From Alphaproteobacteria bacterium (lineage in GTDB: Bacteria > Pseudomonadota > Alphaproteobacteria > G965222575), in the NCBI GenBank assembly GCA_965222575.1, contig OZ244958.1:928001-992000 (forward strand): a stretch of DNA of 64,000 nt, given 5' to 3'. The translations under genes and the position numbers were made by a program. How positions within the stretch are numbered: the first letter of the stretch is position 1; the number at the start of each line of letters is the position of its first letter. This document shows, piece by piece, positions 2 through 20,256 of this stretch. A model generated the notes under the pieces. That model searched no databases and was not told the origin of the DNA. It saw nothing but the letters and a program-made list of their open reading frames with translations.

Positions 2-1075
2 TCTTTACCGTTAGCCTATGATAAGATTATGTCATGGGCAGATGAAGTACGGGTACTTGGGTTGCGTGCTAATGCTGATACGCCTCAGGATACGGAGCTT
101 GCGCTATCACTTGGTGCAGAAGGGATAGGATTGTGTCGAACGGAACATATGTTTTTTGCCTCTGATAGACTAAGGTTAATAAGGATGTGTATTTTTTCCT
201 CCTCTGAAGAGGTTCGTCAAAAAGCGCTAGATGCATTACTACCGCTTCAGAAGCAGGATTTCATAGAGATTTTTTCTTGTTTAGGAGGGTTACCAGCAAC
301 GATTCGTCTTTTAGACCCTCCGTTACACGAGTTTTTGCCTCAAAAGGAGGAGGATTTTGCTCTTTTAGCGCAGGAGTTAGAGTTATCATTAGGAGATGTT
401 CAGAATCGCTACAGGATTTTGAAAGAAACCAATCCCATGCTAGGTCACCGCGGTTGTCGTTTAGGGATAAGCTATCCATCAATTTATAGGATGCAAAGCG
501 AAGCAATTTTAGGAGCGGCAGCAGTGGTACAGAAGCAAGGGATAAAAGTGAATCCTGAGGTAATGATTCCTCTCGTGATAACAGCTGAAGAGCTTAGGAT
601 TTTAAGGGATATGATTATGGAGTGTGCAAAAAGGATAGAAAAGCAGGAAGGGATAAAGCTTTGTTTTGCTATTGGGACAATGATAGAAACGCCGCGTGCG
701 GCTTTGTTAGCCGATGAGATAGCGCAATATGCGGAATTTTTCAGTTTTGGCACGAACGACTTAACACAAACGACTTTAGGGTTATCTAGGGATGATGCGC
801 ATTTTTTAGCGGACTATACGCAACAAGAGATTTTGAAAGAGGACCCGTTTAGCACACTTGATACAGCTGGGGTAGGGCAGTTGATAAAAATTGCCATGAA
901 GAAAGGGTTGGAAGCCCGTAAAGGTCTTAAGATAGGGATATGCGGAGAACATGGGGGAGACCCTAGAAGCATCAGGTTTTTTCATTGTGAGAAGATGGAT
1001 TATATTTCCTGTTCTTCCTATCGTCTTCCTATTGCGCGCTTAGCAGCGGCGCAAGCTGTTCTTAAAGACTCATAA
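2..1075 (+). CDS. ppdK: Pyruvate phosphate dikinase, C-terminal part (5' end outside window)
   Basis: Motifs RANADTP, GAEGIGLCRTEHMFF, RLLDPPLHEFLP, NPMLGHRGCR, GTMIETPRA, FSFGTNDLTQ, GICGEHGGDP. Frame is open from base 2. Confidence 0.96.
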   Translation, partial: SLPLAYDKIMSWADEVRVLGLRANADTPQDTELALSLGAEGIGLCRTEHMFFASDRLRLIRMCIFSSSEEVRQKALDALLPLQKQDFIEIFSCLGGLPATIRLLDPPLHEFLPQKEEDFALLAQELELSLGDVQNRYRILKETNPMLGHRGCRLGISYPSIYRMQSEAILGAAAVVQKQGIKVNPEVMIPLVITAEELRILRDMIMECAKRIEKQEGIKLCFAIGTMIETPRAALLADEIAQYAEFFSFGTNDLTQTTLGLSRDDAHFLADYTQQEILKEDPFSTLDTAGVGQLIKIAMKKGLEARKGLKIGICGEHGGDPRSIRFFHCEKMDYISCSSYRLPIARLAAAQAVLKDS

Positions 1076-1441
1076 TGTGAGGCTCACTAGTGAGGGCTCA
1101 CAATACCAAAAGTTGAGTCAATAATAGAAAGATTGACGGCATAGCGGCCCTCTAAGTCAGGGCTCACAATATCAATCACTCCTCCAAATTGGATACCCCC
1201 CTCTAATGGCATAGCGGCCCTCTAAATGAGGGCTCACGATACTCATTCTCACGATAAGCATTAGCCGTTCTCAGGTATAGCGGCCCTCTATTTGAGGGCT
1301 CACGATACTCATCCATGCCTATTTAACACTTCACCCTCTGGTATAGCGGCCCTCTATTTGAGGGCTCACGATACTGACATGAAAACCTTTATGACAGAAG
1401 GTCGTGGTATAGCGGCCCTCTATTTGAGGGCTCACGATACT
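1072..1441. CRISPR. CRISPR sub-array A: 6 repeats (leftmost three degenerate), 5 spacers
   Basis: 36-nt repeat GGTATAGCGGCCCTCTATTTGAGGGCTCACGATACT at 1274, 1340 and 1406. Variants at 1208 and 1138, and a half-conserved copy at 1072-1107. Unique spacers of 30, 34, 30, 30 and 30 nt. Confidence 0.95.
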
Positions 1442-1519
1442 GAGTACCGTGTAACCCTTTGATACAAGACTACTAACCTGGACTTACTGTTAGCGAAAAT
1501 CGCTACTGCCAGCAATAAT
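1442..1519. promoter_or_regulatory. Leader of sub-array A with IHF consensus site
   Basis: Diverged copy of 1902-1981. Minus strand TATCAAAGGGTTA (1452-1464) matches WATCAANNNNTTR, 10 bp from the repeat. Confidence 0.7.
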
Positions 1520-1667
1520 CTACTCATTTTTTTCCATTACGTCAAGAGACTTCATCCAAACAGTAAACACTTTTTTTACAGGTAAGCGGCGATTGAGCCT
1601 TTTCCCCTTCCAATCCTCTAAAACCTTATGCTCCTTTTTACCTTTGAACCTTCTTTGCGGGAACTTT
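1520..1667 (-). pseudogene. 3' fragment (48 codons plus stop) of a diverged allele of the 409-aa HEPN-like gene
   Basis: Translates KFPQRRFKGKKEHKVLEDWKGKRLNRRLPVKKVFTVWMKSLDVMEKNE*, versus KFPKRRFKGKKGHKVLEDWKGKRFNRRKPVKKVFAVWMKSLDVMEKNE* in the intact gene (5 aa differences). Confidence 0.92.
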
Positions 1668-1901
1668 GGTATAGCGGCCCTCTATTTGAGGGCTCACGAT
1701 ACCGATGATAATCACCCTAAAGATATCCTCAGGGGTATAGCGGCCCTCTATTTGAGGACTCACGATACCAAAGTAATCACTACATGTAAACATCCCTACG
1801 GTATAGCGGCCCTCTATTTGAGGGCTCACGATACCAAGATATTCTTGACATTGCCGAGTTATTGTGGTATAGCGGCCCTCTATTTGAGGGCTCACGATAC
1901 C
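1668..1901. CRISPR. CRISPR sub-array B: 4 repeats, 3 spacers
   Basis: Repeat GGTATAGCGGCCCTCTATTTGAGGGCTCACGATACC at 1668, 1734 (1 mismatch), 1800 and 1866. Three unique 30-nt spacers. Confidence 0.96.
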
Positions 1902-1981
1902 AAGTACCGTGTAACCCTTTGATAATAAGACTACTATACATGGACTTACTGTTAGCGAAATCGCTAACAACCAGCAATAAT
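1902..1981. promoter_or_regulatory. Leader of sub-array B with IHF site and hairpin
   Basis: IHF consensus at 1912-1924. Inverted repeat TGTTAGCGA-AA-TCGCTAACA at 1950-1969, between the array and the gene stop. Confidence 0.7.
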
Positions 1982-3211
1982 CTACTCATTTTTTTCCATT
2001 ACGTCAAGAGACTTCATCCAAACAGCAAACACTTTTTTCACAGGCTTGCGACGATTGAACCTCTTCCCCTTCCAATCCTCTAAAACCTTATGCCCCTTTT
2101 TACCTTTGAACCTTCTTTTCGGGAATTTTGTGCCTCTTGCGCTCGTTTTATATGTAAAATCCTTAATGCATTTTCTCAGAGCCTTATATAAGGCTCTCTT
2201 ATCATCAGTGCTTAATTCTGCTGCTATGCACTGAAAAACCTCTTCTTTTTTAAGATACTCTCCTTTTTTATCCTCTATTTCAAAGAAAAGCCTGCCATGA
2301 CGAAAATTCTGCTCTATCTTGCCTAGCTTATCTTTCAGATACCCTTTTCTGTTCAGAAGTGCCTTATCCTCTTTTAGAGGCTTCAGAAAAACCTTGCATT
2401 GTTCAGACATCTTACGAGCACACCATATCACATTATAAATATACCTTTGACGCACAGTTTTATCTCTTTGCGTTTCTTCTTCTGGGTTTTCAAGTGTCTT
2501 AAATTCCTCAAGCCCCTTCTCAATATACTTATCTACAGAGTCTTCCATGTTTTGTAATTCAAACTTTTTGTGTTTTCTCACAGAGCCGTGTTGTCTTAAT
2601 TTATCTTTTGGTGTTTTGCTCTTTTTGAAGTTCTTCCAATTCTCAAGGCAACACGCATACCTATCAGGAAATTTTTGTTGTACAAACTCCAAGACTTTAG
2701 CAACTGTTTTCGCTTCTAAGAAAGCAAACAGGGCTTGTTCAACGGCCTCAGAAGAGAGTGCACACCGCTCAGGTTTTTCCCTTGAATCATCAGGATGGTG
2801 TAGAATATGACGAGCCGTTATCAATGTTTTCCAGTGTTCCATAAAGGACTCTGGAGTTAGGTATTGAAAGTCTGTACTGTGCCTTAAGTTATTGAGTATT
2901 CTTGTTTTTCTCTCCTTGTTTTCTAAAGTGCATTCCATCACCTTAAGATATTGCTCACTTCCTAAAGGGTCTTGTTGAGTAGAGTAGAGGACTTCCTCAA
3001 ATGTTTCAGTGTGGATGTTTTTTTTCTTGCAGAGGTTTTTATGCCCTTTCCAGCTTCTTTGTCCCGATGCTTCTGTTTGGCGAAAAACCATCTCCTGAAG
3101 AATAAAAAGGATAGACTTCCCTGCTTCTTTTAGGAAGTTCTTATAAGATAAGCGCTCTGTCTCTTGTAGTTTTGAGACTGCATCTAAAAACGTTGTCTTA
3201 TGGTCGCTCAT
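1982..3211 (-). CDS. CRISPR-associated HEPN-like protein, candidate miniature Cas13-like effector (409 aa)
   Basis: WKTLITA-RHILHH-P (R134-H139, RxxxxH). LGKI-EQNFRH-GRLFF (300-305) is a possible degenerate second HEPN motif. Lys/Arg-rich, stop codon 80 bp from the array. Confidence 0.7.
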   Translation of the reverse strand: MSDHKTTFLDAVSKLQETERLSYKNFLKEAGKSILFILQEMVFRQTEASGQRSWKGHKNLCKKKNIHTETFEEVLYSTQQDPLGSEQYLKVMECTLENKERKTRILNNLRHSTDFQYLTPESFMEHWKTLITARHILHHPDDSREKPERCALSSEAVEQALFAFLEAKTVAKVLEFVQQKFPDRYACCLENWKNFKKSKTPKDKLRQHGSVRKHKKFELQNMEDSVDKYIEKGLEEFKTLENPEEETQRDKTVRQRYIYNVIWCARKMSEQCKVFLKPLKEDKALLNRKGYLKDKLGKIEQNFRHGRLFFEIEDKKGEYLKKEEVFQCIAAELSTDDKRALYKALRKCIKDFTYKTSARGTKFPKRRFKGKKGHKVLEDWKGKRFNRRKPVKKVFAVWMKSLDVMEKNE

Positions 3212-3264: not shown

Positions 3265-4296
3265 TTATTTTACCCCTTTCTCCTTCATAGCATTTTTCAG
3301 GTATTCTATCACTTTTTCCAGCCCTTTTCTACTATAAGCAGGTGGAAAATTTGGAGAATGTATTGCCAAGCTTCTTTCTGCCATATCAAGAGGTGTTTGT
3401 CCTCTTTTATCCTTGAGATAGATATCGGCACCCTCTTTGACGAGGAGTTCAACAACATCTATACTTCCTTGATAGGCGGCGTTATGAAGCAGTGTTCTCT
3501 TATCATTTTTGGAAATGACATGGATATTAGCTCCTAGGTGCATCAGATAGCTGAGTGTTTTGATACCACTATAGGCATACCACACAGGTGTATGATTGCC
3601 GTAATGGGTTTTGGCTTCAATATTTGCTCCTGCCTTTATTAGGAGCTCTGCGATATCTTTATAATCAAAGGAACTTGCGTAGTGGAGGGGAGTCTTGCCT
3701 TCTAGGTCTTGTATATCCACAGAGGCTCCAGCCTTTATCAGAATCTCCACTAAGTCTTTCTCTCCGATCCAAGCGGCATCATGGAGTGCTGAATTGCCGG
3801 GATTACTTGATGTCACATTAACATTCGCGCCTTTTTTGATGAGATACAGCACTATATCGAGCTGAGAATTTTTAGTGACTGCATACATGAGTGGGGTTTG
3901 GTTCTTGTGATCCTTGACATTGACGGGACAGCCTGCCTCTATAAGAGTTTTGACAATTTTGAAATGACCATTCAGAGTTGCCAGATGGAGCGGTGTTTGA
4001 TGCGTACGATTTTTACCTGCTATTTTTGCGCCCATTTTCAGTAGGTAGTTCACAATCTCTAAGTGACCATTAGAGGCTGCGAGGTGAAGTGGTGTAGGGC
4101 GCAAGGGACTATCCCTCAAAAAAGGCGGTAGAGGCCTCTTGCTTTCATCTGGGGCATTAACAGAGACACCTTGTTTTATGAGGTCTTTGACTTTCTGAAG
4201 ATTTCCCTCTTTTGCTGCATTGTGTATCGGGGCACAAGTCCCTTGATTAAGAGTGCATAGCACGAGCAAGGCAGACAAAAGAAGAAGTGTTCGCAT
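3265..4296 (-). CDS. Secreted ankyrin-repeat protein
   Basis: Signal peptide MRTLLLLSALLVLCTLNQGTCA followed by multiple TPLH/GA.VN repeats. Confidence 0.93.
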   Translation of the reverse strand: MRTLLLLSALLVLCTLNQGTCAPIHNAAKEGNLQKVKDLIKQGVSVNAPDESKRPLPPFLRDSPLRPTPLHLAASNGHLEIVNYLLKMGAKIAGKNRTHQTPLHLATLNGHFKIVKTLIEAGCPVNVKDHKNQTPLMYAVTKNSQLDIVLYLIKKGANVNVTSSNPGNSALHDAAWIGEKDLVEILIKAGASVDIQDLEGKTPLHYASSFDYKDIAELLIKAGANIEAKTHYGNHTPVWYAYSGIKTLSYLMHLGANIHVISKNDKRTLLHNAAYQGSIDVVELLVKEGADIYLKDKRGQTPLDMAERSLAIHSPNFPPAYSRKGLEKVIEYLKNAMKEKGVK

Positions 4297-4504: not shown

Positions 4505-5032
4505 CTAATGCGCTAATTTATCTTTATCATCAGGTATTTTTATCATTGTATTGAATGTGTAAACCACCACTACAAATGTACTAAATGTATAGGTAAATAG
4601 ACTCACCCAAAGTGATATGCACATATATGAAAAAACACCAAAAGATTGAAGTTGGAAAGGGAAGATTAGCCCTAGTAATGCTGGTATCAAAGTAGCAAAT
4701 CCAAGCTTGATAACTCTTATTAAATCAGATTGAAATTTTTTCATAGCAGGTGTGCCGGAAACAGCAACAATGAATTTATTGCTTTTACTATGGGTATAGA
4801 CAAAAACAGAAAACAAAAATCCTGTCTGAATGGCACACCAATCGAAACCAGCATTGAACAATCCTTCTAGAGAGATGCGTTCAGACTCTATAAACATCAG
4901 TATTTTCTCATGTTGCCAGAGGAATACTATCCACAGCAAAACACAAAATATAAACAACCAATGCTTTTTTAGGGACTCAAAGGACACTTGGCTAGCCTTA
5001 GTTTTTGATAAATTGATACAAGTTGTATTCAT
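4505..5032 (-). CDS. Membrane protein (~4 TM)
   Basis: Four hydrophobic stretches. Lies 27 bp downstream of the 273-aa gene on the same strand. Confidence 0.75.
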   Translation of the reverse strand: MNTTCINLSKTKASQVSFESLKKHWLFIFCVLLWIVFLWQHEKILMFIESERISLEGLFNAGFDWCAIQTGFLFSVFVYTHSKSNKFIVAVSGTPAMKKFQSDLIRVIKLGFATLIPALLGLIFPFQLQSFGVFSYMCISLWVSLFTYTFSTFVVVVYTFNTMIKIPDDKDKLAH

Positions 5033-5059
5033 TCGTTTTCAAACATCTCTTAATGAGTT

Positions 5060-5881
5060 TCACTTTTCGAGATATATTTTAAAATAGTCTTTATGGTTTT
5101 CCAACCTTTCCTTGATAAGCTTTACTCTAAGTGAATAACTTTCTTTTGGATCAGAAATTGATTTAAAATCAATTTTATCTTTAAGCATTTCATTTAAAAG
5201 ATCAATTTCATTAGGGTCATCTGCTACTTTTACTTTTACAGACTCTGCTGTTCCTTCTTTTAATAGCTTTAAAAGTGTTTTCAAGCTATCCTTAAGCACC
5301 TTTTTTGTGCGTCCCACACTAAGTTCAATAGTGATATATGGGGCGTTAGAGAGTTTTTGTATCTCTTCCATGCTCTTATTGAAGGGATGAGATTGAAAAT
5401 TCTTTATTTGTGCGGTTTTAACTTTAATTCTCGTCAGTTCCCCACTCTCAATTTTTGGCCATACCTCCTTACCACGAATAGGCCGGAAGCAAAAACCATT
5501 ACTCGAATTATGTTCCTTTAGGTATTGTCCTATTTTTGATAACCCTAAAATGTGATTATTATACTGAATTGCTAAAATGCTTAGAGGTACATTAAAAACA
5601 AATGCCATACTGTACCCAATTTTATCAGCTTCAAGTTTAACAAGGTGCTCTTTTTTTACCTGTGCAGGAAGGTTATCTGTCTGTATTCGAATCATATCCC
5701 CTGAGAAGATATCACCATCTTCTTCAAGATGCTGAAGACGCATATTTACTTCATTAATAAACTTTTCTCTTGCTTCTACAGATTCCTTCTTGAGATCTTT
5801 CAAAGCACTGGAGAATTCTCTATTCCCAGTATCTGATAGGACAACCTGAAAATACCGTACAGTGATCTTTACATCGCTCAA
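5060..5881 (-). CDS. DUF6731/DUF4747-like protein
   Basis: 273-aa ORF. The ITVRYFQV start, ILAIQYN and IDLLNEMLK segments resemble that family (recognised from memory). Confidence 0.55.
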   Translation of the reverse strand: MSDVKITVRYFQVVLSDTGNREFSSALKDLKKESVEAREKFINEVNMRLQHLEEDGDIFSGDMIRIQTDNLPAQVKKEHLVKLEADKIGYSMAFVFNVPLSILAIQYNNHILGLSKIGQYLKEHNSSNGFCFRPIRGKEVWPKIESGELTRIKVKTAQIKNFQSHPFNKSMEEIQKLSNAPYITIELSVGRTKKVLKDSLKTLLKLLKEGTAESVKVKVADDPNEIDLLNEMLKDKIDFKSISDPKESYSLRVKLIKERLENHKDYFKIYLEK

Positions 5882-5964: not shown

Positions 5965-6384
5965 CTACAGAAATGTGGTGTAACTCTTTCCTGTCTTTTC
6001 CAAAGTCGCATCTTTGCCCGTCATCTCCTGCCAACGTTTGACAATTTTGAAATGACCATTCAGAGTTGCCAGATGGAGCGGTGTTTGATGCGTACGATTT
6101 TTACCTGCTATTTTTGCGCCCATTTTCAGTAGGTAGTTCACAATCTCTAAGTGACCATTAGAGGCTGCGAGGTGAAGTGGTGTAGGGCGCAAGGGACTAT
6201 CCCTCAAAAAAGGCGGTAGAGGCCTCTTGCTTTCATCTGGGGCATTAACAGAGACACCTTGTTTTATGAGGTCTTTGACTTTCTGAAGATTTCCCTCTTT
6301 TGCTGCATTGTGTATCGGGGCACAAGTCCCTTGATTAAGAGTGCATAGCACGAGCAAGGCAGACAAAAGAAGAAGTGTTCGCAT
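5965..6384 (-). pseudogene. Truncated ankyrin duplicate fused to a phage DNA-methylase C-terminus
   Basis: Identical to 3265-4296 up to FKIVK, then RWQEMTGKDATLEKTGKSY, which resembles the IVKRWQ.FTGK.A.LE.TG tail of prophage N4/N6 methylases. Confidence 0.75.
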
Positions 6385-6578: not shown

Positions 6579-9500
6579 ATGAATACTATTGCATTGGAAT
6601 TAGAAGAGTTGCGAAAGAAGGTCCTCAACCCGACTAAAAAAAATCCTATGATTGATACAAAGATCAATAGCAGGTCATTTATTAGAATTGTGGATGAAGT
6701 GCCTAGTCAGCTTCTTAAAATTCTTGAAGAGGAGGAGAAGAAAATGAAAATTATCCCTTTGCCTCCTTTAGAGGAGGAGCCAAAGGATGAAAAAACTCAG
6801 GAGTTTATGAGGGAATTGATAAACGCACAGCATACTGATGAGGAATATAAACGTCAGATGAAAGACCTAGAGGAAAGAAGTGACAATGGTGATAAAGATT
6901 TGGAAAAAGAGGAAAAAGAGGAATATCTAGAACGGGAACTGAAGGATAGGGTACGCGAAACGCTAGGGTTAGAACCCAGACAAAAAAAAGAATCCCCCGA
7001 CCTTAAAAAACATGCGCGCAATCATAATATATCCCCAAGTTATGATTTGCCTCTTGAACCCAAGCGTCATAGTGATGAACGTCATATTGATAAGAATATT
7101 CAAACTCTTTATTTGCCTGATAAACTTCATGCCCTCTTAGAGAATCTCTGTAAAAGAGATAAAACATCCCAAGAAGAAAAGGGCACTGGAATTTTATACA
7201 TAGCACTTGGCTTTCTTGAATGGGGGGAAAATGAAGATAAGGTAAATCGATCACCTTTGGTGTTAATTCCAGTTCAAATTGAAAGAAAAAGTTCGCCAAA
7301 GGGGCCGGAATTTTGGATGTGTAGTGATGGACAGGAAGCGCAAGGAAACAGCCTTCTTGCTCAAAAACTCAAGGAAGAGTTCAAAATAGAATTAGAAGAC
7401 TATTCCTCTAGCAATACCTTAGAAGAGTATTTCCAGAAAATAGAAGAACAAAAACCCCCTACTATGAAGATATGGAATTTTAGAAGGTGGGGTATAATAG
7501 GAGGATTTTCTTTTGTTGGTTTAACCATGTATAAAGACCTTGACCCTGAACAATGGGAGAGCAACCTTGAGGAAAACTCCCTGGTCTCAACTTTACTCAA
7601 ATCTTCGGGAGGGGCAAGTAGTACTGGAAGTGCTGGATTATTTTGCGATGACTATAATACAGATGAAGAGGAAACTGAACAAAAATTTCCCTATCCCATA
7701 TTTTCAGCTGATCCATCACAGTTTAGTACAATAGTAGATGTAGTAAATGGAAAGGATTTAGCCGTTGAAGGGCCACCGGGCACTGGTAAATCACAAACAA
7801 TTATGAATACTATTGCAGCCATGTTGGCTGACCGTAAGAAAGTTCTTTTTATAGCGCAAAAGCAAGTCGCTATTGAGGTAGTCAGGTCACGCCTGCAAGA
7901 AAAAATAGGAGATTATGTATTGTCTTTGCAACCTAAACAAAAAAAGGAATTTTATACTTCTCTTAAAAAGAGAGTGGAACACGCAAGACCTGGAAAAATT
8001 TATAACTATAACCAGATTGAAAAAGAGCATAACAATTTTGGAAATGCAAGAAAAAAGATACAGTCATATTTGGAATTTTTAGGCACTAAGCCTCCCAAAA
8101 CAAACCTTACTATTCATGAGATTCTTGGACGAGCTGTCAAACATGATGTCATGAATCTTCCTAAAGAGTTCAAAAAAATTGAAATTGATATACAGGAAGT
8201 AACTAAAGAGATGCTTCGCACATGTCAGTCTCATTGTACAGACCTCTACAAGGCATACAAAAATGCTTCAGAAGGGAAGAGTTGTTGGGAACATGTTACA
8301 GAAGACAACGTAAATCTCTTCAGCGCAGAGACAATACTTGAGAACACCGAAGAATCTTCAACAGTTTTTACTCGAGCCGATGAAGGGATTAAAGAACTGA
8401 ATAAGGAACAGAAACATCACTTCTGTAATATTCACGAAGTTAACGAATATGTTAAAGACTGCTTAGAAGAAATAGAAAAGAAAGATTGGTCTTTTCCTAA
8501 AGATTATCCTGTAATTGCAGAATCTTTCCAGACTCATGCTAATTGTGCTGATGCATACAGAGAAAGGCTGAAGAAGGTTAAAAAATACAAAGAACACGTT
8601 GATGGATGCGGAGATTACCCTTTGAAAGCTCTTTTGAAAGCTCTTTCACTTTTTGATTTTAGAGAGATGCTCAAGATGTACTCCAATCTCCCCGAAGAGG
8701 TCTTAGGGATATCCCCACAGATAAAGAAACGATTAGATGACTCAAAGAAAGAATTTCCTCGTTTCAGTAAGGATTTCAGTGAGTTCCAAAAGAATAAAAA
8801 GGCGCTAGAAACGATATTTGAAAAACGGGTCTTTGAGGAGAAGTTTTGGAATGAATATAAGAAATCTATTGATACTCACATCAAACAGTTTTCTAGTGCT
8901 GGGGTGTTTTTCTTCTTTTTTTCAAAAGAGTATAGAAAAAGTAGAAAGTTTTACAGGCGTATAAGTAAGAGTGGATTCTTTGTTAATGGAATTGAAGCTG
9001 AGAAAAAACTCCACGCCTTGGTTGACTGGAAAAATAAAAGACGCCGATTTGAGGATGAGAAGAAAGAGATATTAGGCCCTTATAAGAAAGAGTTAAACTT
9101 GGATTCAAATATAAAGTCTTTTGAAGAGTATGTTGATTTTGTTAAGGAGATTGAAAACACATTTGGAGGAGATGATAAAAAAGAATTCCGCCAGAGATTC
9201 AAGGAAATTGATTCTGAGAACCTGCCAAGGATTAATGATGAAGACCCTATCTTTAAAATAGAAGAGAATATAAAGCTAGCAGATTTGGAGTGCTGTATAG
9301 AAGCAGAAGAAAAAAAGTCTCGTAAATGTAAATCTGATGCTGAACTTGTAAAAATTCTTAGTGAAGGTTACCCCAAATATTTCAAAGGCCTTGATGGTTC
9401 TCTAAAAAATGTTCCTATAGATACTGAAGGTTGGTTGGAGGACAAATCCTATTCGGAAATTTCAGAAATGCTCAAAGAGGCATCTCAAGATAAGGAGGGT

Positions 9501-11192
9501 CTATTGGATTATAGTAACCTCCTTTCAAAGAAAAACCAGCTGTATCAGAAGTTCCCTCAGATTGAGAGTCTTGTAGAGAATCTTTTAGAACAAAGCAATG
9601 AGAATTTCCCTAAGATTATTGAAGCACGCATCATATATGAAATGCTAGAAGGTGTTTACAACAACTACAACAAATCTTTTTTTCAAGAACAAGACATTGA
9701 TTCCTTAAGAAAAAAATTTCAGGACGCACATTCCAACATTATAGAATACTCCCCTCAACATATACAGTCTATCATTCACTGCGACTTCACTGCTATTCCT
9801 GAAGGGGAGAAAGGAAAGTCTACGAAGGATTATACCGAAGGAGCGTTGATAAAGCATGAGTGCGCTAAGGAAAAAAGACACATATCAGTTAGGCGCTGTG
9901 TAAAACAGGCTACGGAATCCCTATTAGAGTTGAAGCCATGTTGGATGATGTCTCCCCTAACAGTGGCAGAATATCTCCCCCAGAAAGAGATATTTGATCT
10001 TGTCATCATTGATGAAGCTTCCCAAATGCCTCTGGGAGAAGCACTGGGTGCGTTGCTTCGTGCTAAGAACGCTATGATAGTTGGTGACCGCCATCAATTA
10101 CCTGCAACATCTGCTTTTAAATTCGTTTACAAGAGTGATGATGCAGGGATAGAGTCGGTTTTAGATAAAGCAAATAGCGTTTTTCCTAAACGCCGGTTGC
10201 AGTATCATTATCGCTCAAAACATGAAAGTCTTATCTCCTTTTCTAATAAACATATCTATAATGATAAACTTGAAGTTTCTTCATCTCCCATTAAAAATGA
10301 TGATCTAGGTGTTTATTATACTAAAGTGGAGGGAAAGTATTCCGGGGGTGGTGAAAATCTTAAGGAAGCAGAAGAGATGGCACTCAATATTTGTGAGTTT
10401 ATGGAAAAGAATCCGAAGAAATCATTGGGTGTGGTTGTAATGAATGCAACACAACAAGAGCTTCTTGACGAGCAAATGAAACTATTAAGAAGTGATGATA
10501 AAGATGTAGAAAAGTATATTAAAAGTTGGGAAAAACGTACAGAATCTTTCTTCATTAAAGCTTTAGAAAATGTACAAGGAGATGAACGGGATGTTATCTT
10601 TATAGGTACTGTTTACGGTCCCGATAAACAAGGACGAGTTTTTCAGAGATTTGGGGATATCAACAAAGATTACGGATACCGCCGTTTGAATGTTCTTTTT
10701 ACAAGGGCGAAGGAAAAAATAGTTACGTTTTCTTCTATGACTCCTGAAGATATCACAGCAAAGAATCGTGGAGCAGAGATGCTTAAGAAATGGCTATTAT
10801 ATTCTTATACAGGTCAATTAGAGGGTGGGGAAGATTCAGGCAGAGAACCAGACAGTACATTTGAAGAAGCTGTCATAGAGGTAATAGAGAGCTGGGATTA
10901 TAAAGCAGTTCCACAAGTCGGAGTTAAGAGGTATCGTATAGATATAGGGATAAAGCATCCAGCGTATCCTTATGGATATCTTATGGGGATAGAATGCGAT
11001 GGTGCACAGTATCACTCCTCATATGATGCACGTCAGCGAGACCACCTTAGAGAAGAGTTCTTAAAAACGCAGGGATGGAAATTGTATAGAATCTGGTCTA
11101 CTGACTGGTTTCATGACAAGCAAAAGGCAAGTGAAAAGCTGAAGGAAGAACTTGATAAAGCGTTAAGAGAAAAGACAAGTACTGTTGCTTGA
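6579..11192 (+). CDS. DUF4011 + SF1 (UPF1-like) helicase + C-terminal Vsr-like nuclease; Hhe-like anti-phage protein
   Basis: LYIALGFLEW and SPLVLIPV (DUF4011); EGPPGTGKSQT; DEASQ; VGDRHQL; HYRS; ENVQGDERD; RRLNVLFTRAK; IECDGAQYH...RIWSTDWF. Confidence 0.88.
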   Translation: MNTIALELEELRKKVLNPTKKNPMIDTKINSRSFIRIVDEVPSQLLKILEEEEKKMKIIPLPPLEEEPKDEKTQEFMRELINAQHTDEEYKRQMKDLEERSDNGDKDLEKEEKEEYLERELKDRVRETLGLEPRQKKESPDLKKHARNHNISPSYDLPLEPKRHSDERHIDKNIQTLYLPDKLHALLENLCKRDKTSQEEKGTGILYIALGFLEWGENEDKVNRSPLVLIPVQIERKSSPKGPEFWMCSDGQEAQGNSLLAQKLKEEFKIELEDYSSSNTLEEYFQKIEEQKPPTMKIWNFRRWGIIGGFSFVGLTMYKDLDPEQWESNLEENSLVSTLLKSSGGASSTGSAGLFCDDYNTDEEETEQKFPYPIFSADPSQFSTIVDVVNGKDLAVEGPPGTGKSQTIMNTIAAMLADRKKVLFIAQKQVAIEVVRSRLQEKIGDYVLSLQPKQKKEFYTSLKKRVEHARPGKIYNYNQIEKEHNNFGNARKKIQSYLEFLGTKPPKTNLTIHEILGRAVKHDVMNLPKEFKKIEIDIQEVTKEMLRTCQSHCTDLYKAYKNASEGKSCWEHVTEDNVNLFSAETILENTEESSTVFTRADEGIKELNKEQKHHFCNIHEVNEYVKDCLEEIEKKDWSFPKDYPVIAESFQTHANCADAYRERLKKVKKYKEHVDGCGDYPLKALLKALSLFDFREMLKMYSNLPEEVLGISPQIKKRLDDSKKEFPRFSKDFSEFQKNKKALETIFEKRVFEEKFWNEYKKSIDTHIKQFSSAGVFFFFFSKEYRKSRKFYRRISKSGFFVNGIEAEKKLHALVDWKNKRRRFEDEKKEILGPYKKELNLDSNIKSFEEYVDFVKEIENTFGGDDKKEFRQRFKEIDSENLPRINDEDPIFKIEENIKLADLECCIEAEEKKSRKCKSDAELVKILSEGYPKYFKGLDGSLKNVPIDTEGWLEDKSYSEISEMLKEASQDKEGLLDYSNLLSKKNQLYQKFPQIESLVENLLEQSNENFPKIIEARIIYEMLEGVYNNYNKSFFQEQDIDSLRKKFQDAHSNIIEYSPQHIQSIIHCDFTAIPEGEKGKSTKDYTEGALIKHECAKEKRHISVRRCVKQATESLLELKPCWMMSPLTVAEYLPQKEIFDLVIIDEASQMPLGEALGALLRAKNAMIVGDRHQLPATSAFKFVYKSDDAGIESVLDKANSVFPKRRLQYHYRSKHESLISFSNKHIYNDKLEVSSSPIKNDDLGVYYTKVEGKYSGGGENLKEAEEMALNICEFMEKNPKKSLGVVVMNATQQELLDEQMKLLRSDDKDVEKYIKSWEKRTESFFIKALENVQGDERDVIFIGTVYGPDKQGRVFQRFGDINKDYGYRRLNVLFTRAKEKIVTFSSMTPEDITAKNRGAEMLKKWLLYSYTGQLEGGEDSGREPDSTFEEAVIEVIESWDYKAVPQVGVKRYRIDIGIKHPAYPYGYLMGIECDGAQYHSSYDARQRDHLREEFLKTQGWKLYRIWSTDWFHDKQKASEKLKEELDKALREKTSTVA

Positions 11193-11266: not shown

Positions 11267-13525
11267 TCACACTCTTATATTCCGCATACCTGTAGGGTCT
11301 CTTAACTCAGGAAGAGGAACAGGAGGAGGAGGAACAGGACGAAGTTTCGGAACAGGAACAGGAGGAGGAGGAAGAACAGGAGGAGGAGGAAGAACAGGAG
11401 GAGGAACAGGACGAAATTTCGGAACAGGAAGAGGAGGAGGAGGACAAAGTTCCGGAACAGGAGGAGGAGGAGGAGGAACAGGAACAGGAGGAAGTTTCGG
11501 AACAGGAGGAATCCTGAAATTCCTTACATTCCAATAACAAGGAGCCGTACTAGGATCGGTAAGATCAAATCCCTTAGGATATGTAGTAGAATCGTTAACA
11601 TCAAACCCCAGAGGAAAAGTTGATGAATCATTCAAATCTACAGTAATCCTAACTTTCTTATAAAGAGAAGAAAACAAACCACCTACATTTACAGGATCAT
11701 CTCTACTTCCCATCAATTTACCTGCACGATATTCCAAAACCAGCCAATCATTCGCATCTGATGCTCTAACTGATCTAGGGAAAAAATGCCATATCAGATA
11801 AGAATGGGGATCAACCCCCGTAGGAATGGTGTGCTTAAACCATTCCATCAAAGGCACAAAAAACCTTTCTTCTTGAGTTAAAGGCCACCTCAAACGCAAT
11901 CCCTCCAAATACTCAGAAACCCTTTGAAGTGAAGGAAATAAATACCGATAAAGCTCCTCAAACCACGCACCAAACGGGGGTACACCCCACATTTCACTAA
12001 AACCCTCTTGAAATGGAGACAAAGCCCTAAGCTTTTTTTCATTAAAATCAATAATACGATTAAAAATACCATATCCCCAAGCCTGGGCCAGCCCAGCCTG
12101 GTCCAGCCAATTCCACCTTGATATCCCCTTAGGAGTAAAAAAATAATCAAGCTTATACTTTTGCTTTATTGCCAGAGGCAAGCTCCCATATCCTGACTGT
12201 TGTACCGTACGAATAATATCTATAAGGGCATGTGCATCTGCAGGAGGCTGAATGACAAACTTAGGACGATACCCCGGAGAATTATACTCATACATAAAAG
12301 AATCAGCATACGTACTCTCATCCCCATACCCATAAAAAGCCCCCCTTTGAGGATAAGGACTCCTCTCTGCCCTCCTCGGTATTGCCAGTGCCCTCGAAAG
12401 CCATCCTTTTTCATACTTCTTCTGTGTGGGGTCTTTTTTCACAATCGATAGGTAATACGCCTTCGACTGCCTGCACAGCTCGTATACTAAGTCCAAGTTT
12501 CTTACTAACTTCGGGTCAAGAACGGCGTTCAGCGCTCCTAGAGTCTTAGGCCCCATTATCCCATCCACTGCCATCCCATCCACTGCCAATGCCTCATCTC
12601 TAGCTTTATTTAAGGCCTTCTGTATCTTATTTAAGGTCAACTGCACCAACTGCACCGCTTGGGAGAGACTCAGACCCGCGGCCGTGTCACACAGCTTGGC
12701 TGCCAAAACTTCATCTTTTATCTCATCACACTTCAACATCTCCCACAAATACTTCAATATCTTCTTTGCTTTGTCCGTCGTCAAGTTCTGAATATCAGTG
12801 GCCGTGACGTTGGGATGGAAGCCCTGATAAGAATTAAGGCTTATGTTGTACTTCGTCTGGCCTCCCTTGTCAGTGGAACTATCCGAAACCCCTACCTCTT
12901 CCTTAAGGATAAACTTCAAAGTCGCACAAAATGGTATTGTTATATCCTCCGTTTTCTCCGTATTCTCCGTATTCTCTGGTCTTCTGTTTCCCCTCTTCAG
13001 CCATCCTGTATAATTCTCAAATGCGGAGTTCTTTTTCATAAGCAATAGGTAAAACCCTGTCGAATGAAAGCGCAGATATTCTATTAAGTCGTCGCTAAAA
13101 GTGGCGTTCAGCGCTTTTAGAGTCTTAGGCCCCATTTTCCCATCCAATGCCAATGCCTCATTTTTATAGTAAATATTTAAGGCCTCCTGTAGCAACTTTA
13201 TCGCTTGGGGCACGCCCATATTCACGGCCATGTCAAACAGCTTGATTGCCACACTTTCATCTTTTATCTCACCACCCAACACCTCCTCCCAAAAATGCTC
13301 CCTAAGTATCTCCTCCGCTTCCGACACCGTCAAGTTCTTCATTTGCTTGGCCGTGAAGGTGTCATCGATGGTTTGAAGAAATTGAAGGCTTATGCCGTAC
13401 TTCGTCGCACCTCCAGGGTCGTTGGGGTCATTCGAAAACACTCCCTCATTCTGCGCCACGTAATCGAGAGCAGACCGAAACCTCGTATTTCTATTCGTAT
13501 TTATATATATATCATATACTGTCAT
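11267..13525 (-). CDS. Tandem GH108 muramidase/PG-binding protein with unknown domain and Pro-rich C-terminus
   Basis: EGVFSNDPNDPGGATKYGI...FDMAVNMG...DGKMGPKTL...GWLKR, repeated as EEVG...DKGGQTKYNI...DGIMGPKTL...GWLSR. C-terminal PPVPPPPP repeats. Confidence 0.85.
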   Translation of the reverse strand: MTVYDIYINTNRNTRFRSALDYVAQNEGVFSNDPNDPGGATKYGISLQFLQTIDDTFTAKQMKNLTVSEAEEILREHFWEEVLGGEIKDESVAIKLFDMAVNMGVPQAIKLLQEALNIYYKNEALALDGKMGPKTLKALNATFSDDLIEYLRFHSTGFYLLLMKKNSAFENYTGWLKRGNRRPENTENTEKTEDITIPFCATLKFILKEEVGVSDSSTDKGGQTKYNISLNSYQGFHPNVTATDIQNLTTDKAKKILKYLWEMLKCDEIKDEVLAAKLCDTAAGLSLSQAVQLVQLTLNKIQKALNKARDEALAVDGMAVDGIMGPKTLGALNAVLDPKLVRNLDLVYELCRQSKAYYLSIVKKDPTQKKYEKGWLSRALAIPRRAERSPYPQRGAFYGYGDESTYADSFMYEYNSPGYRPKFVIQPPADAHALIDIIRTVQQSGYGSLPLAIKQKYKLDYFFTPKGISRWNWLDQAGLAQAWGYGIFNRIIDFNEKKLRALSPFQEGFSEMWGVPPFGAWFEELYRYLFPSLQRVSEYLEGLRLRWPLTQEERFFVPLMEWFKHTIPTGVDPHSYLIWHFFPRSVRASDANDWLVLEYRAGKLMGSRDDPVNVGGLFSSLYKKVRITVDLNDSSTFPLGFDVNDSTTYPKGFDLTDPSTAPCYWNVRNFRIPPVPKLPPVPVPPPPPPVPELCPPPPLPVPKFRPVPPPVLPPPPVLPPPPVPVPKLRPVPPPPVPLPELRDPTGMRNIRV

Positions 13526-13762: not shown

Positions 13763-15505
13763 ATGAAAAGACTATGGTGTCTCTTCAGTGTCCTTGTACT
13801 GGTGGGGTCTCTTGCCCGAGCCTTTCCCCTTCACAATGCTGCCCAAAGGGGTGATCTTGATACCATCAAGGGGCTCATAGCTAAGGGGGCGGATGTGAAT
13901 GCACATGACTTTATACTCGAAGGCAATACACCGCTCCATGAGGCAGCTTGGGACGGACACAAAGAGGTAGTGGAATTTCTGCTGCAAGCAGGGGCGGATG
14001 TGAATGCACAGAACAAGCACAACTGGACACCGCTCCATATGGCAGCCTATTGGGGGCACAAGGAAGTAGCAGAGGTTCTTGTGAAAGCAGGAGCTAACCT
14101 AGAGGCAAAAGAAGCCTTGTTTTACAAGACACCGCTCCATACGGCAGAGCGGGCATTAAAAGCAACAATAGACGAAGAAAAAAAGCAGCGCCTCTCTGAG
14201 GTGATAGAGTATCTGAAAAGCAAGGAAGCGGATGACGGCTGGACACCACTCCATAGGGCAGCCTCTGAGGGGCACAAGGAGGTAGTGGAAGTTCTTTTGG
14301 AGAAGGGGGCGGAGGTGAATGCAAAGGACAAGTACGGCGTGACACCGCTCCATAGGGCAGTCTATAAGGGACACAAAGAAGTGGTGACATTCCTAGTGGC
14401 GCAGGGGGCTTCTGTGAAGGCACAGGACAAGTACGGCGGGACACCGCTCCATGGGGCAGCTTGGAACGGACACAAAGAGGTGGTGGAGGTTCTGCTACAA
14501 GCAGGGGCGGATGTGAATGCACTAAGCGATATCCATGGGACACCGCTCCATAGGGCAGTCTATAAGGGACACAAAGAAGTGGTGACATTCCTAGTGGCGC
14601 AGGGGGCTTCTGTGAAGGCACAGGACAATTACGGTGGGACACCGCTCCATAAGGCAGCCGAGGGTGGACACAAGGAGGTAGTGGAGGTTCTTTTGGAGAA
14701 GGGGGCTTCTGTGAATGCAAAGAGCAAGAAAGGCGTGACACCGCTCCATTGGGCAGCCGAAAAGGGACACGAAGAAGTGGTGACATTCCTAGTGGCGCAG
14801 GGGGCGGATGTGAATGCACAGGACAAGGAAGGCGAGACACCATTCCATAGGGCAGCCGAAAAGGGACACAAAGAGGTGGTGACATTCCTAGTGGCGCAGG
14901 GGGCGGATATCCACGCAAAGGACGATTACGGCTATACACCGCTCCATGAGGCAGCCGATAATGGACACAAGGAAGTGGTGACATTCCTAGTGGCGCAGGG
15001 GGCGGATGTGAATGCAAAGCACAAGTACGGCGAGACACCGCTCTATATGGCAGTTTATAAGGGACACAAAGAAGTGGTGACATTCCTAGTGGCCCAGGGG
15101 GCGGATGTGAAGGCACGAAACGATACCGGCAGGACACCGCTCCATTTGGCAGCTTGGAACGGGTACACGGAGGAAGTGGTGTTCTTTGTAGAGAAGGGGG
15201 CGGAGGTGAATGTACAGGACAAGTACGGCAATACACCGCTCCATTGGGCAGCCAAAAAGGGACACAAAGAGGTGGTGACATTCCTAGTGGAGAAGGGGGC
15301 AGATGTGAATGCACAGGACAAGGACGGCAGGACACCGCTCCATTGGGCAGTCTTATATGGACACAAGGAGGTGGTGACATTCCTAGTGGAAGCAGGGGCG
15401 GATGTGCATGCACAGGACAAGGACGGCGTGACACCGCTCCGTTGGGCAGACAGTGGGGGGCACAAGGAGGTAGTGGCGTATCTGAAAAGCAAGGGGGCTA
15501 AGTAG
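13763..15505 (+). CDS. Secreted ankyrin-repeat protein (580 aa)
   Basis: Signal peptide MKRLWCLFSVLVLVGSLARA; canonical 33-aa repeats. Confidence 0.95.
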   Translation: MKRLWCLFSVLVLVGSLARAFPLHNAAQRGDLDTIKGLIAKGADVNAHDFILEGNTPLHEAAWDGHKEVVEFLLQAGADVNAQNKHNWTPLHMAAYWGHKEVAEVLVKAGANLEAKEALFYKTPLHTAERALKATIDEEKKQRLSEVIEYLKSKEADDGWTPLHRAASEGHKEVVEVLLEKGAEVNAKDKYGVTPLHRAVYKGHKEVVTFLVAQGASVKAQDKYGGTPLHGAAWNGHKEVVEVLLQAGADVNALSDIHGTPLHRAVYKGHKEVVTFLVAQGASVKAQDNYGGTPLHKAAEGGHKEVVEVLLEKGASVNAKSKKGVTPLHWAAEKGHEEVVTFLVAQGADVNAQDKEGETPFHRAAEKGHKEVVTFLVAQGADIHAKDDYGYTPLHEAADNGHKEVVTFLVAQGADVNAKHKYGETPLYMAVYKGHKEVVTFLVAQGADVKARNDTGRTPLHLAAWNGYTEEVVFFVEKGAEVNVQDKYGNTPLHWAAKKGHKEVVTFLVEKGADVNAQDKDGRTPLHWAVLYGHKEVVTFLVEAGADVHAQDKDGVTPLRWADSGGHKEVVAYLKSKGAK

Positions 15506-15656
15506 TCACCTCCGCACACGAGGTTTGGTACATCCTAGCGATATGCCCCTCAGTGGTATTAGCTCCCTAAGCGAAAAGCGGCTAGAGGGGCAAGACTTTA
15601 CTTCTTAGAGGCTGTATGCTATCCTAAACAAGGTTCGTAAAGAAGAGGTACTTAAT
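15506..15656. repeat. Conserved 151-bp inter-cassette element (also 18462-18612, 23615-23765; partial ~13676-13762)
   Basis: Near-identical copies. Contains a TGCCCCTC...GAGGGGCA inverted repeat, the promoter and the RBS. Confidence 0.92.
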
Positions 15657-18461: not shown

Positions 18462-18612
18462 TCACCTCCGCACACGAGGTTTGGTACATCCTAGCGATAT
18501 GCCCCTCAGTGTTATTAGCTCCCTAAGCGAAAAGCGGCTAGAGGGGCAAGACTTTACTTCTTAGAGGCTGTATGCTATCCTAAACAAGGTTTGTAAAGAA
18601 GAGGTACTTAAT

Positions 18613-20256
18613 ATGAGAAGACTATGGTGTCTCTTGAGTGTTCTTGTACTGGTGGGGTCTCTTGCCCGAGCCTTTCCCCTTCACGATGCCGCCCAAAGGG
18701 GTGATCTTGATACCATCAAGGGGCTCATAGCTAAGGGGGCTTCTGTGAATGCGAAAGACAGAGAGGGCTGGACACCGCTCCGTGGGGCAGTTTTTCGGGG
18801 ACAGGTGGAGGTGGTGAAGGTTCTGCTTCAAGCAGGAGCGGATGTGCATGCACGAAACGATACCGACTGGACACTGCTTCATAGGGCAGCCTATATGGGT
18901 CAGGTGGAGTTGGTGGAGGTTCTGCTTCAAGCAGGGGTTGATGTGAATGCCCAAAACAAGGACGGCAAGACACCGCTCAGTGCTGTAGCCTATATGGGTC
19001 AGGTGGAGTTGCTGGAGGTTCTGCTACAAGCAGGGGTTGATGTGAATGCCCAAAACAAGTACGGCAATACACCGCTCCATGAGGCAGCTTGGGACGGACA
19101 CAAAGAGGTAGTGGAATTTCTGCTGCAAGCAGGGGCGGATGTGAATGCACAGGACAGGGGCGGCAATACACCGCTCCATTGGGCAGCCGGAGGGGGACAC
19201 AAGGAAGTGGTGGAGGTTCTAGTGGAGAAGGGGGCGGATGTGAATGCCCAGGACAAGTACGGCTGGACACCGCTCCATAAGGCAGCCGATGAGGGGTACA
19301 AGGAAGTGGTGGAGGTTCTGCTACAAGCAGGGGCGGATGTGAATGTGAAGGCGAAAGGCGAGGACAGCAGGACACCGCTCCATGAGGCAGCCTCTGAGGG
19401 GCACAAGGAAGTAGTGGAGGTTCTCCTCCACGCAGGGGCGGATGTGAATGCAAAAAACAAGTACGGCTGGACACCGCTCGATTGGGCAGCCGGTGGGGGG
19501 CACAAGGAAGTGGTGGAGGTTCTGCTACAAGCAGGGGCGGATGTGCATGCACGAGACGATTTCGGCGGTACACTGCTCCATAGTGCAGCCTCATCTAGAA
19601 GCAAGGAGGTAGTGGAGTTTCTAGTGGAGAAGGGGGCGGATATCCACGCAAAGGACGATGACGGCAGGACACCGCTCTTTAGTGCAGCCTCATCTGGAAG
19701 CAAGGAAGTGGTGGCGTTCCTAGTGGCGCAGGGGGCGGATGTGAAGGCACGAAACACAATCGGTGGGACACCGCTCCATAGGGCAGCCTCATCTGGGAGC
19801 AAGGAAGTGGTGGAGGTTCTGCTTCAAGCAGGGGCGGATGTGCATGCACGAAACGATACCGGCGATACACCGCTCCATTGGGCAGCCGAAATGGGAAGCA
19901 AAGCAGCAGCAGAGGTTCTTGTGGCCCAGGGGGCGGATGTGGAGGCAAAGAACAATTACGACTGGACGCCGCTCCATAGTGCAACCGGCTGGACGAGGGA
20001 CCATTGGGTAGTCGAAGAGGAACGCAAAGAAGTGGTGACATTCCTAGTGGAGAAGGGGGCTAATGTGAATGCAGCGACCAGCAACGGCGATACACCGCTC
20101 CATTTGGCAGCCTCATGGGCAGACAAGGAGGTAGTGGCATTCCTAGTGGAGAAGGGGGCGGATGTGAATGCAAAGGACAAGAAAGGCAGGACACCGCTCC
20201 ATTTTGCAGGACTCACGAAGGTGATAGCGTATCTGAAAAGCAAGGGTGGGCGATAA
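18613..20256 (+). CDS. Secreted ankyrin-repeat protein (547 aa)
   Basis: Closely related signal peptide and N-cap; ankyrin repeats. Confidence 0.95.
   Translation: MRRLWCLLSVLVLVGSLARAFPLHDAAQRGDLDTIKGLIAKGASVNAKDREGWTPLRGAVFRGQVEVVKVLLQAGADVHARNDTDWTLLHRAAYMGQVELVEVLLQAGVDVNAQNKDGKTPLSAVAYMGQVELLEVLLQAGVDVNAQNKYGNTPLHEAAWDGHKEVVEFLLQAGADVNAQDRGGNTPLHWAAGGGHKEVVEVLVEKGADVNAQDKYGWTPLHKAADEGYKEVVEVLLQAGADVNVKAKGEDSRTPLHEAASEGHKEVVEVLLHAGADVNAKNKYGWTPLDWAAGGGHKEVVEVLLQAGADVHARDDFGGTLLHSAASSRSKEVVEFLVEKGADIHAKDDDGRTPLFSAASSGSKEVVAFLVAQGADVKARNTIGGTPLHRAASSGSKEVVEVLLQAGADVHARNDTGDTPLHWAAEMGSKAAAEVLVAQGADVEAKNNYDWTPLHSATGWTRDHWVVEEERKEVVTFLVEKGANVNAATSNGDTPLHLAASWADKEVVAFLVEKGADVNAKDKKGRTPLHFAGLTKVIAYLKSKGGR

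Follow-up and report, generated by a model that had tools for sequence, protein, structure and literature searches.

The window, which is the whole stretch of DNA analysed (64,000 nt), carries on its minus strand a gene for a putative, very divergent miniature Cas13an/Cas13e-like protein (hereafter the effector), together with two CRISPR arrays, a leader and a diverged copy of the end of the gene (Table 1). The reading frame is open over all of its 409 codons, and the G+C content of the gene is 38.5%, compared with 45.7% genome-wide; the gene is located in a low-G+C stretch, beside a Hhe/PDC-S37-like helicase-nuclease. The genes neighbouring the effector and its arrays are a ppdK-like (housekeeping) gene and an ankyrin gene, with no adjacent cas gene.

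Table 1. Positions within the window of the effector gene, its motifs and the associated CRISPR features.
Feature	Position	Strand	Remarks
Promoter-like site, upstream of effector gene	3303..3331	minus	consensus match alone
Effector gene, 409 aa, ATG start	1982..3211	minus	ORF and translation; putative very divergent miniature Cas13an/Cas13e-like protein
NLRH, N108-H111	2879..2890	minus	H111 on His invariant in N-terminal half of Cas13an6 clade
HEPN1 motif RHILHH, R134...H139	2795..2812	minus	canonical R-x4-H; script-placed
HEPN2 motif EQNFRH, E300...H305	2297..2314	minus	Glu at catalytic Arg position; script-placed
Array 1 leader	1902..2007	minus	promoter-like TTGACG, 17 nt, TAGATT (2007 to 1979); overlaps effector's last codons
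CRISPR array 1	1668..1901	minus	4 repeats of 36 nt, 3 spacers of 30 nt
Diverged copy of effector's last 55 codons, with leader copy	1444..1687	minus	sits between the arrays
CRISPR array 2	1072..1441	minus	6 repeats, 5 spacers (four of 30 nt, one of 34 nt)

Array 1 begins ~80 nt past the effector stop codon, and the two arrays, adjacent to the gene, together hold 10 repeats of 36 nt that recur every 66 nt. The repeat has a predicted hairpin of −17.6 or −20.4 kcal/mol, depending on the strand, and is absent elsewhere in the 1.216-Mb single-contig genome. In array 2 the low-coordinate (distal) repeats are degenerate, and the last of them reaches into the ppdK-like gene at its 3′ end. The gene-end copy between the arrays retains 82% amino-acid identity and contains one TAG stop (nucleotides 1476-1638 versus 1938-2100, 89% alike), while the leader copy that follows it, ahead of array 2, carries an identical promoter-like site (1545 to 1517, minus strand). 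The minus strand is favoured as that of the crRNA by these promoter-like sites in the leaders, by the degeneration of the distal repeats and by synteny with the Cas13an6 locus; the plus-strand form of the repeat is slightly closer to the published repeats and carries a U-rich loop. With as many as 6 substitutions allowed, none of the eight spacers found a match in the genome of the bacterium itself, spacer cores of 24-25 nt (from four of the eight) found no match in viral contigs, and the whole array region found none in phage records. A search of the effector/array locus against Rfam gave nothing above chance.

Two further CRISPR-Cas loci are located elsewhere in the genome: a type I-C locus encoding Cas3, Cas5d, Csd1, Cas7, Cas4, Cas1 and Cas2, and a type II-C locus encoding a 988-aa Cas9, Cas1 and Cas2. 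The type II array consists of 36-nt repeats and 11 spacers, 10 of which are 30 nt and one 29 nt long.

Probable kinship with the miniature Cas13an family

The effector protein gave no match in Pfam, NCBIfam, PADLOC or the PDB sequences, even at an E value of 10. Scanning 1.84 billion representatives and word-searching 5.8 billion proteins found one homologue alone, P0002, which comes from another contig, is identical at 406 of 409 residues and has both motifs unchanged. A match obtained with the effector as query among 60 genomes of the same class was rejected as false, being an HsdS specificity subunit, and nothing else was found in that set. Similarity to the large Cas13a, Cas13b and Cas13d was undetectable by sequence. 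The curated VI_Cas13e model (NF049956.1; cut-off 175 bits) gave no match to the effector at E values up to 10, with two positive controls, Cas13an6 and a second true Cas13an member, scoring 543.5 and 457.2 bits, respectively.

Cas13an, also named Cas13e, has been proposed as the ancestor from which all Cas13 enzymes derive; it is, to our knowledge, the smallest RNA-guided RNase, with only about fifteen published sequences. Its members are 421-577 aa long (Table S3) and occur with 36-nt repeats, 30-nt spacers and no adjacent cas genes, type II cas1-cas2 being present in trans in 4 of 10 genomes (PMC12165695). The name Cas13e, with the rank of subtype VI-E, is that given in the 2025 classification (PMC12669027). 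The crRNA of the family has its spacer 5′ of the repeat. At 409 aa the effector is compact, shorter than the Cas13an proteins of Table S3, and lacks a REC lobe.

For comparison, the Cas13an6 locus was recovered via its repeat pattern and seven relatives were then gathered. The profile used in hhalign was built from six Cas13an sequences, and the HMM and the MAFFT alignment from eight, all of them from the Cas13an6 clade. A word-index search with the Cas13an profile returned the same six proteins again, a metagenome scan yielded two close relatives of Cas13an6, and a viral scan with the profile yielded no relatives; among 400 genomes of one class, the centre genome itself was the sole match. 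Sequence and profile searches of the PDB found no Cas13an structure.

The alignments to this family converge on the C-terminal part of the effector. In BLASTP against Cas13an6 the best segment was the HEPN2 stretch (residues 288-329 on 336-376; E 0.02, for a single comparison), and hhalign placed residues 287-404 on 335-472 of the Cas13an profile over 112 columns, reaching the C-terminus (E 6.5e-5; probability 64%, or 59% in another run). In hmmsearch the eight-sequence HMM scored the effector at 9.2 bits, which was equalled by one of 2,000 shuffles of the effector. No alignment to the Cas13an HEPN1 profile was obtained for the N-terminal half. In the full-length MAFFT alignment, 28 of 107 invariant columns were matched, versus a mean of 25.7 for shuffles, 90 of 300 of which equalled the effector; colinearity is thus not significant, and the conserved-column count was discarded as evidence of kinship after this shuffle control. 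The likeness of the repeats was also discarded, after a control with the II-C repeat of the genome: the array repeat agrees with Cas13an repeats at 15-21 of 36 positions and with that unrelated repeat at 16-19 of 36.

Structure prediction was of low confidence with AF2 on a mixed alignment (pLDDT 58.4, pTM 0.40) and unusable from the single sequence (pLDDT 40.9). Foldseek found nothing at an E value of 0.001 or better, and the ESM Atlas returned weak leads to DUF4145 and RnlA-like clusters (0.84-0.85, under the 0.9 line).

The effector is probably akin to Cas13an. The results with NF049956, the shuffles, HEPN1, the repeats, the model and Foldseek speak against kinship, and the effector is accordingly taken as a distant relative that would work like Cas13an and is not a member by the curated test. 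An unrelated helical protein standing beside an orphan array by chance would explain why curated families give no match, why the global alignment equals shuffles and why every fold match lies under the caution level of its tool; yet four methods agree on a local alignment that extends over the C-terminal 112 columns, and the locus fits Cas13an in its gene-array anatomy, in the lengths of its repeats and spacers and in having a type II adaptation module in trans. Moreover, the effector is the sole gene beside the arrays besides the housekeeping ppdK-like gene, and we consider such a chance arrangement improbable. The preliminary description had read the protein as a Cas13. Its Cas13-like character stands, but the relevant family is the miniature Cas13an (Cas13e, VI-E) rather than the large Cas13, and the loss of guide maturation that a defective site would entail had been overlooked (PMC12165695).

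The two HEPN motifs

Both motifs were recovered where the preliminary description had placed them: RHILHH, intact, occupies residues 134-139 as a canonical R-x4-H, and EQNFRH, flanked by LGKI and GRLFF, occupies residues 300-305, with script and translation in agreement. In the first, R134 is aligned by MAFFT to the invariant HEPN1 Arg in all eight Cas13an sequences, H135 provides the polar residue after it, and the motif fits the HEPN superfamily pattern Rx4-6H and is similar to the R-H-x-L-E-H of Cas13an1, 2, 5, 8 and 10 (Table S3). Four R-x(4-6)-H strings are present in the effector, starting at R52, R104 (x6), R134 (x4) and R367 (x6), and a script run over the whole protein found none near residue 300 in the second half. 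Two R-x4-H motifs were therefore not found in the one chain, the second site being E300-x4-H305, or D300 in the variant described below.

BLASTP, hhalign, hmmsearch and MAFFT share a common register, in which residues 299-305 lie on the Cas13an HEPN2 motif. In the MAFFT alignment, E300, Q301, R304, H305 and F309 fall, respectively, on an Arg, Asn, Ala, His and Phe that are each invariant in eight of eight Cas13an sequences. The Glu that had been noticed in place of Arg is thus confirmed to stand on the catalytic Arg of the relatives, and the earlier reading, which depended on a conserved His at 305, finds that residue on the invariant Cas13an His. Among the 13 sequences of Table S3, read by eye, R-N-x-x-[A/K]-H is found in all 11 with a visible motif, the other two entries being truncated ahead of it, and the HEPN1 His is absent in five of the 13. 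Judged from these alignments, the resemblance of residues 299-310 to a HEPN motif exceeds chance.

A second string of the same N-hydrophobic-R-H form as residues 302-305 is found at residues 108-111. The N-terminal half of the effector fits the Cas13an HEPN2 profile best, with residues 88-145 aligned weakly in hhalign (E 0.026 and 0.016) and 105-111 on the motif, and comparison of the two halves of the effector with each other gave 99-115 on 293-309 as the best match (E 0.41, not significant). A site made of I-L-N-N-L-R-H (105-111) and I-E-Q-N-F-R-H (299-305), non-canonically symmetric and leaving RHILHH as an extra, would account for these matches and for the position of H111 on the invariant His of the Cas13an6 clade. 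We consider it very unlikely, as the alignments behind it are not significant and RHILHH is like the HEPN1 motif R127-x4-H132 of Cas13an2, which was tested experimentally as the R127A/H132A mutant (PMC12165695).

The low-confidence AF2 model has R304 as the last residue of helix 292-304 and H305 as the first of the following loop. According to PMC3710099, a HEPN motif lies at the end of a helix with its His at the start of the next loop, a position that the predicted helix and loop of HEPN2 fit, though the Arg is absent.

The existence of a single complete motif in HEPN1 raises the arrangement in which the HEPN1 domains of two protomers (R134/H139 twice) would form a canonical site, with HEPN2 serving as a structural or RNA-binding part. 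Most HEPN proteins are indeed homodimers, but all Cas13 proteins, Cas13an included, use an intramolecular HEPN pair (PMC12165695), and His305 and its flanks are conserved although a non-catalytic HEPN2 would not need them. A homodimer prediction scored 0.00, which is evidence neither for nor against a dimer. Such rescue by dimerization thus appears scarcely probable.

Variants and integrity of the locus

Contigs covering the locus were obtained from two public sequencing runs of one study (X1 and X2), one of them possibly made from the source sample of the assembly. The sequencing runs listed for the organism included none made from RNA. The HEPN2 region is identical in contigs of both runs, P0002 keeps the motif and a variant has Asp at the position; E300 is therefore not an assembly slip. 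This variant is represented by minor contigs of X2, with 11 differences in 2233-2361 and 7 in 2624-2753. Once translated, it carries E300D, Q301K and five further changes within 294-317 (seven in total), whereas N302-D313 is unchanged and NFRHGR is kept. Both forms thus have an acidic residue at position 300 and preserve the R-H core. The variant patches hold 12 non-synonymous versus 6 synonymous differences, counts that are too few and too clustered to show selection, and the sole indel in the reads is an in-frame loss of 3 nt.

At the repeat borders, contigs of both X1 and X2 end in flanking sequences that are absent from the 64,000-nt window, and array 2 is partly uncovered in X2. These foreign contig ends and gaps suggest that array content differs between strains and that spacers turn over.

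These observations bear on whether the system is a relic in the course of loss from a reduced genome, in which E300 would be inactivating and frameshifts would be yet to follow. The arrays are short (3 plus 5 spacers) with degenerate distal repeats, and between them lies a broken copy of the gene's 3′ end; however, that copy (82%, with a stop) shows what local decay looks like here, and the effector gene is unlike it, with a 409-codon frame that is open and a promoter-like site. The ratio of substitutions in the variant is compatible with relaxed selection, yet NFRHGR is untouched amid seven changes, the only indel preserves the frame, and P0002, from another contig, differs at three residues alone. 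Databases hold no close relatives, and no spacer matches were found (own genome, 8 of 8 spacers; viral contigs, cores of 4 of 8; phage records, array region); the unfamiliar sequences flanking repeats in X1 and X2, on the other hand, suggest arrays that still exchange spacers. Decay of this kind is therefore a rather unlikely explanation of the locus.

A candidate active site and its counterparts in known systems

The best reading is that the effector is an intact, very divergent VI-E-like protein, in which the HEPN2 Arg was lost or moved to R304. The two fused HEPN domains would form one crRNA-guided RNase serving both adjacent arrays, for which new spacers would probably be supplied in trans by the type II-C Cas1-Cas2 of the genome. 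Provided that the two motifs face each other, R134, H139 and H305 could keep the composite site functional, while R304 may compensate for the missing Arg by supplying the second guanidinium, possibly held by E300. The outcome would be a weaker or altered RNase that carries out guide processing and target cleavage.

Substitutions of this kind have precedents: PMC3710099 describes HEPN families whose motif retains only one of the two residues, His without Arg or Arg without His, and in which a basic residue or a His from another part of the protein is put forward as the substitute. R304 follows position 300 by four residues, which would put it one helical turn further along the same face. Pairing of a Glu at position i with an Arg at i+4 is possible. 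Of the ideas in the preliminary description, rescue by R304 is the most attractive, since R304 occupies the place of an Ala that is invariant throughout the eight Cas13an sequences. A composite site of R134, H139, R304 and H305 that still works in altered form is, in our estimate, slightly less than an even prospect. Retention of RNase activity, as far as the sequence allows it to be predicted, may likewise be put close to, but below, an even chance.

The loss of Arg could also be more drastic. Single Arg mutants of the large Cas13a are reported to be dead. Cas13an2 lost both cleavage and processing when Arg and His were replaced jointly in one HEPN motif, whichever of the two it was (PMC12165695). 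From these two sets of mutants, loss of the Arg could simply kill the site. In Cas13an, however, a single HEPN site both matures the crRNA and cleaves the target (PMC12165695), so a dead HEPN site would stop guide maturation too, and a reading in which the protein only binds RNA is for this reason less simple than it would be for a large Cas13.

Such a nuclease-impaired effector, with HEPN2 dead, would act as a crRNA-guided RNA binder that blocks the translation or stability of its target without collateral cleavage, and would owe its guides to host RNases or read-through transcripts. A pure binder, left otherwise with unprocessed guides, would have no need for His305, Arg304, Asn302 and the whole of HEPN1, all of which are kept, and no naturally inactive Cas13 appeared among the matches listed in full-text literature searches. 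Nevertheless, the catalytic Arg is swapped for the opposite charge, and the change stays acidic in the variant (E300D), so that it looks settled and not like a chance event of recent date; the reading frame is unbroken in the effector, P0002 and those parts of the variant that the contigs cover; and collateral RNA cleavage could burden a bacterium with a 1.2-Mb genome. We regard this alternative as unlikely, though worth serious consideration, and retain the VI-E-like protein with a lost or relocated Arg as the preferred reading.

A bolder form of the preferred reading is possible but doubtful: the effector may found a type VI lineage that has so far gone unrecognised, and at 409 aa it may be the smallest Cas13-like effector known to date. 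The Arg of HEPN2 would have been either moved by one turn (E300 with R304, a rewired site) or given up (a natural RNA-guided binder without collateral activity). The ankyrin-rich bacterium, with its 1.2-Mb genome and its type I-C and type II-C systems, would retain the protein together with arrays whose spacers turn over. In any case, a smaller Cas13an relative that is missed by the curated model and by database searches would widen the family and amount to a natural test of the HEPN active site. Should R304 restore catalysis, the composite site is rewirable and the 409-residue protein could serve as a scaffold in RNA tools; should the site prove dead, the effector would have no natural predecessor as a binding-only type VI protein among the matches listed in the literature searches.

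Among known systems, Cas13an shares with the effector a single small protein without a REC lobe and an HEPN1 of the R-H-x-L-x-H type. The loci are also alike: an array of 36-nt hairpin repeats and 30-nt spacers comes after the gene and runs in its direction, cas genes are missing from the neighbourhood, and type II cas1-cas2 are encoded at another place in the genome. Alignment extends to the flanks of HEPN2 (I-x-x-x-x-x-H-G-x-L-F-F) and to the C-terminal landmarks F-P...W...R...W. In contrast, the effector is only ~20% identical to Cas13an and unmatched by the curated model, it is without the conserved W-P-R-Y-N-F-H insertion, its HEPN2 has Glu-Gln for Arg-Asn and Arg for the invariant Ala before the His, and its host is a small-genome, ankyrin-rich bacterium, probably belonging to the class of Robiginitomaculum.

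The large Cas13a, Cas13b and Cas13d differ in being two to three times bigger, with a separate crRNA-processing site and two complete R-x4-H motifs (PMC12165695). Displaced catalytic residues are known from PaREP1-type HEPN-T, AbiV and AF0298, in which another residue is proposed to stand in for the motif Arg or His (PMC3710099); these proteins are free-standing, homodimeric and not RNA-guided, and the comparison with them is by analogy. A counterpart is found in the Cas13an6 clade, where the gene and array of Cas13an6 itself have the same order and direction as here and the motif pair is incomplete too: HEPN1 reads R-[NH]-x-L-x-x, with the His at +5 absent in eight of eight sequences, and an invariant His ~20 residues upstream of HEPN1 is aligned to H111 of the effector. 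The missing half of the pair differs, however, being the HEPN1 His in that clade and the HEPN2 Arg in the effector.

Sequence motifs in the effector and the Cas13an6 clade

In the 409-aa Cas13an-like effector, a short string recurs once per protein half and with similar flanks, as N-L-R-H (residues 108-111; window 2879-2890) and as N-F-R-H (residues 302-305; 2297-2308). These two strings are paired in the top match of a half-versus-half hhalign comparison, which is not significant (E 0.41). In the Cas13an6 clade, the His of the HEPN1 R-x4-H motif is missing from every one of the eight collected proteins (L011; alignments A1 and A2), and in all eight an invariant His, part of T-E-H-A-[IV]-P, precedes this motif by about 20 residues. 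As judged from these alignments, the published Cas13an family includes members with a non-canonical HEPN1, namely this clade.

Partial gene copy and sequence variation at the effector-array locus

The copy between the two arrays comprises the last 55 codons of the effector (82% amino-acid identity; one TAG stop) plus the leader, promoter-like site included, and its junction point is exactly the end of a repeat. It could be the leftover of a second gene-array module or a segmental duplication.

Sequence variants were found in both public sequencing runs, X1 and X2. The minor-variant contigs of X2 carry 11 differences in 2233-2361 and seven in 2624-2753, both being tight patches flanked by sequence free of differences; this looks like a second allele, a paralogue or gene conversion. 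In X1, an in-frame 3-nt loss is present at 2253 in one low-depth contig. Across the arrays (window 1072-1901), contigs of both runs break off at repeat borders and carry sequences absent from the window. Coverage by X2 is missing at 1572-1655 and low at 1236-1319. The content of the arrays seems to be strain-dependent.

Neighbouring genes

The 1537-aa helicase-nuclease, with PADLOC matches to PDC-S37 at E 7e-275 and to Hhe at E 1e-184, is a defence gene near the CRISPR locus. For the 175-aa and 273-aa ORFs, no family was found in Pfam or PADLOC; as they are flanked by the effector's neighbour gene and the helicase-nuclease, they are possibly defence genes of an unrecognised type.

The 139-aa ORF contains a near-exact copy of the 343-aa ankyrin protein's first ~115 residues, signal-like N-terminus included, an arrangement which suggests that the stretch separating the two arose by insertion or duplication. 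Elsewhere, three tandem ankyrin-repeat genes of high mutual similarity (580, 934 and 547 aa) share near-identical signal-like N-termini, and a 752-aa protein combines two GH108 lysozyme plus peptidoglycan-binding units with a proline-rich tail.

Features of the locus and its genome (window coordinates unless G000, the source genome, is named)
Feature	Coordinates	Strand	Remark
Diverged copy of effector 3′ end and leader	1444-1687		between two CRISPR arrays
343-aa ankyrin protein	3265-4296	-	
175-aa and 273-aa ORFs	4505-5881	-	lowest-G+C stretch (33-36%)
139-aa ORF	5965-6384	-	
1537-aa protein	6579-11192	+	DUF4011, SF1 helicase (AAA_11/AAA_12), MTES_1575 nuclease domain
752-aa protein	11267-13525	-	
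Ankyrin-repeat trio	13763-20256	+	
Type I-C locus (L008)	G000 about 20-37 kb		
Type II locus (L009)	G000 about 1.126-1.132 Mb		

CRISPR-Cas systems of the source genome

Three CRISPR-Cas systems are kept in this genome of 1.2 Mb: one of type I-C, one of type II whose Cas9 has 988 aa, and that of the Cas13an-like locus. A single copy of the type II repeat, located at L009 8425 and 260 nt away from the type II array, may represent a tracrRNA anti-repeat. The type II array and the effector-side arrays have in common a 36-nt repeat, a 30-nt spacer and the repeat terminus TATAGC.
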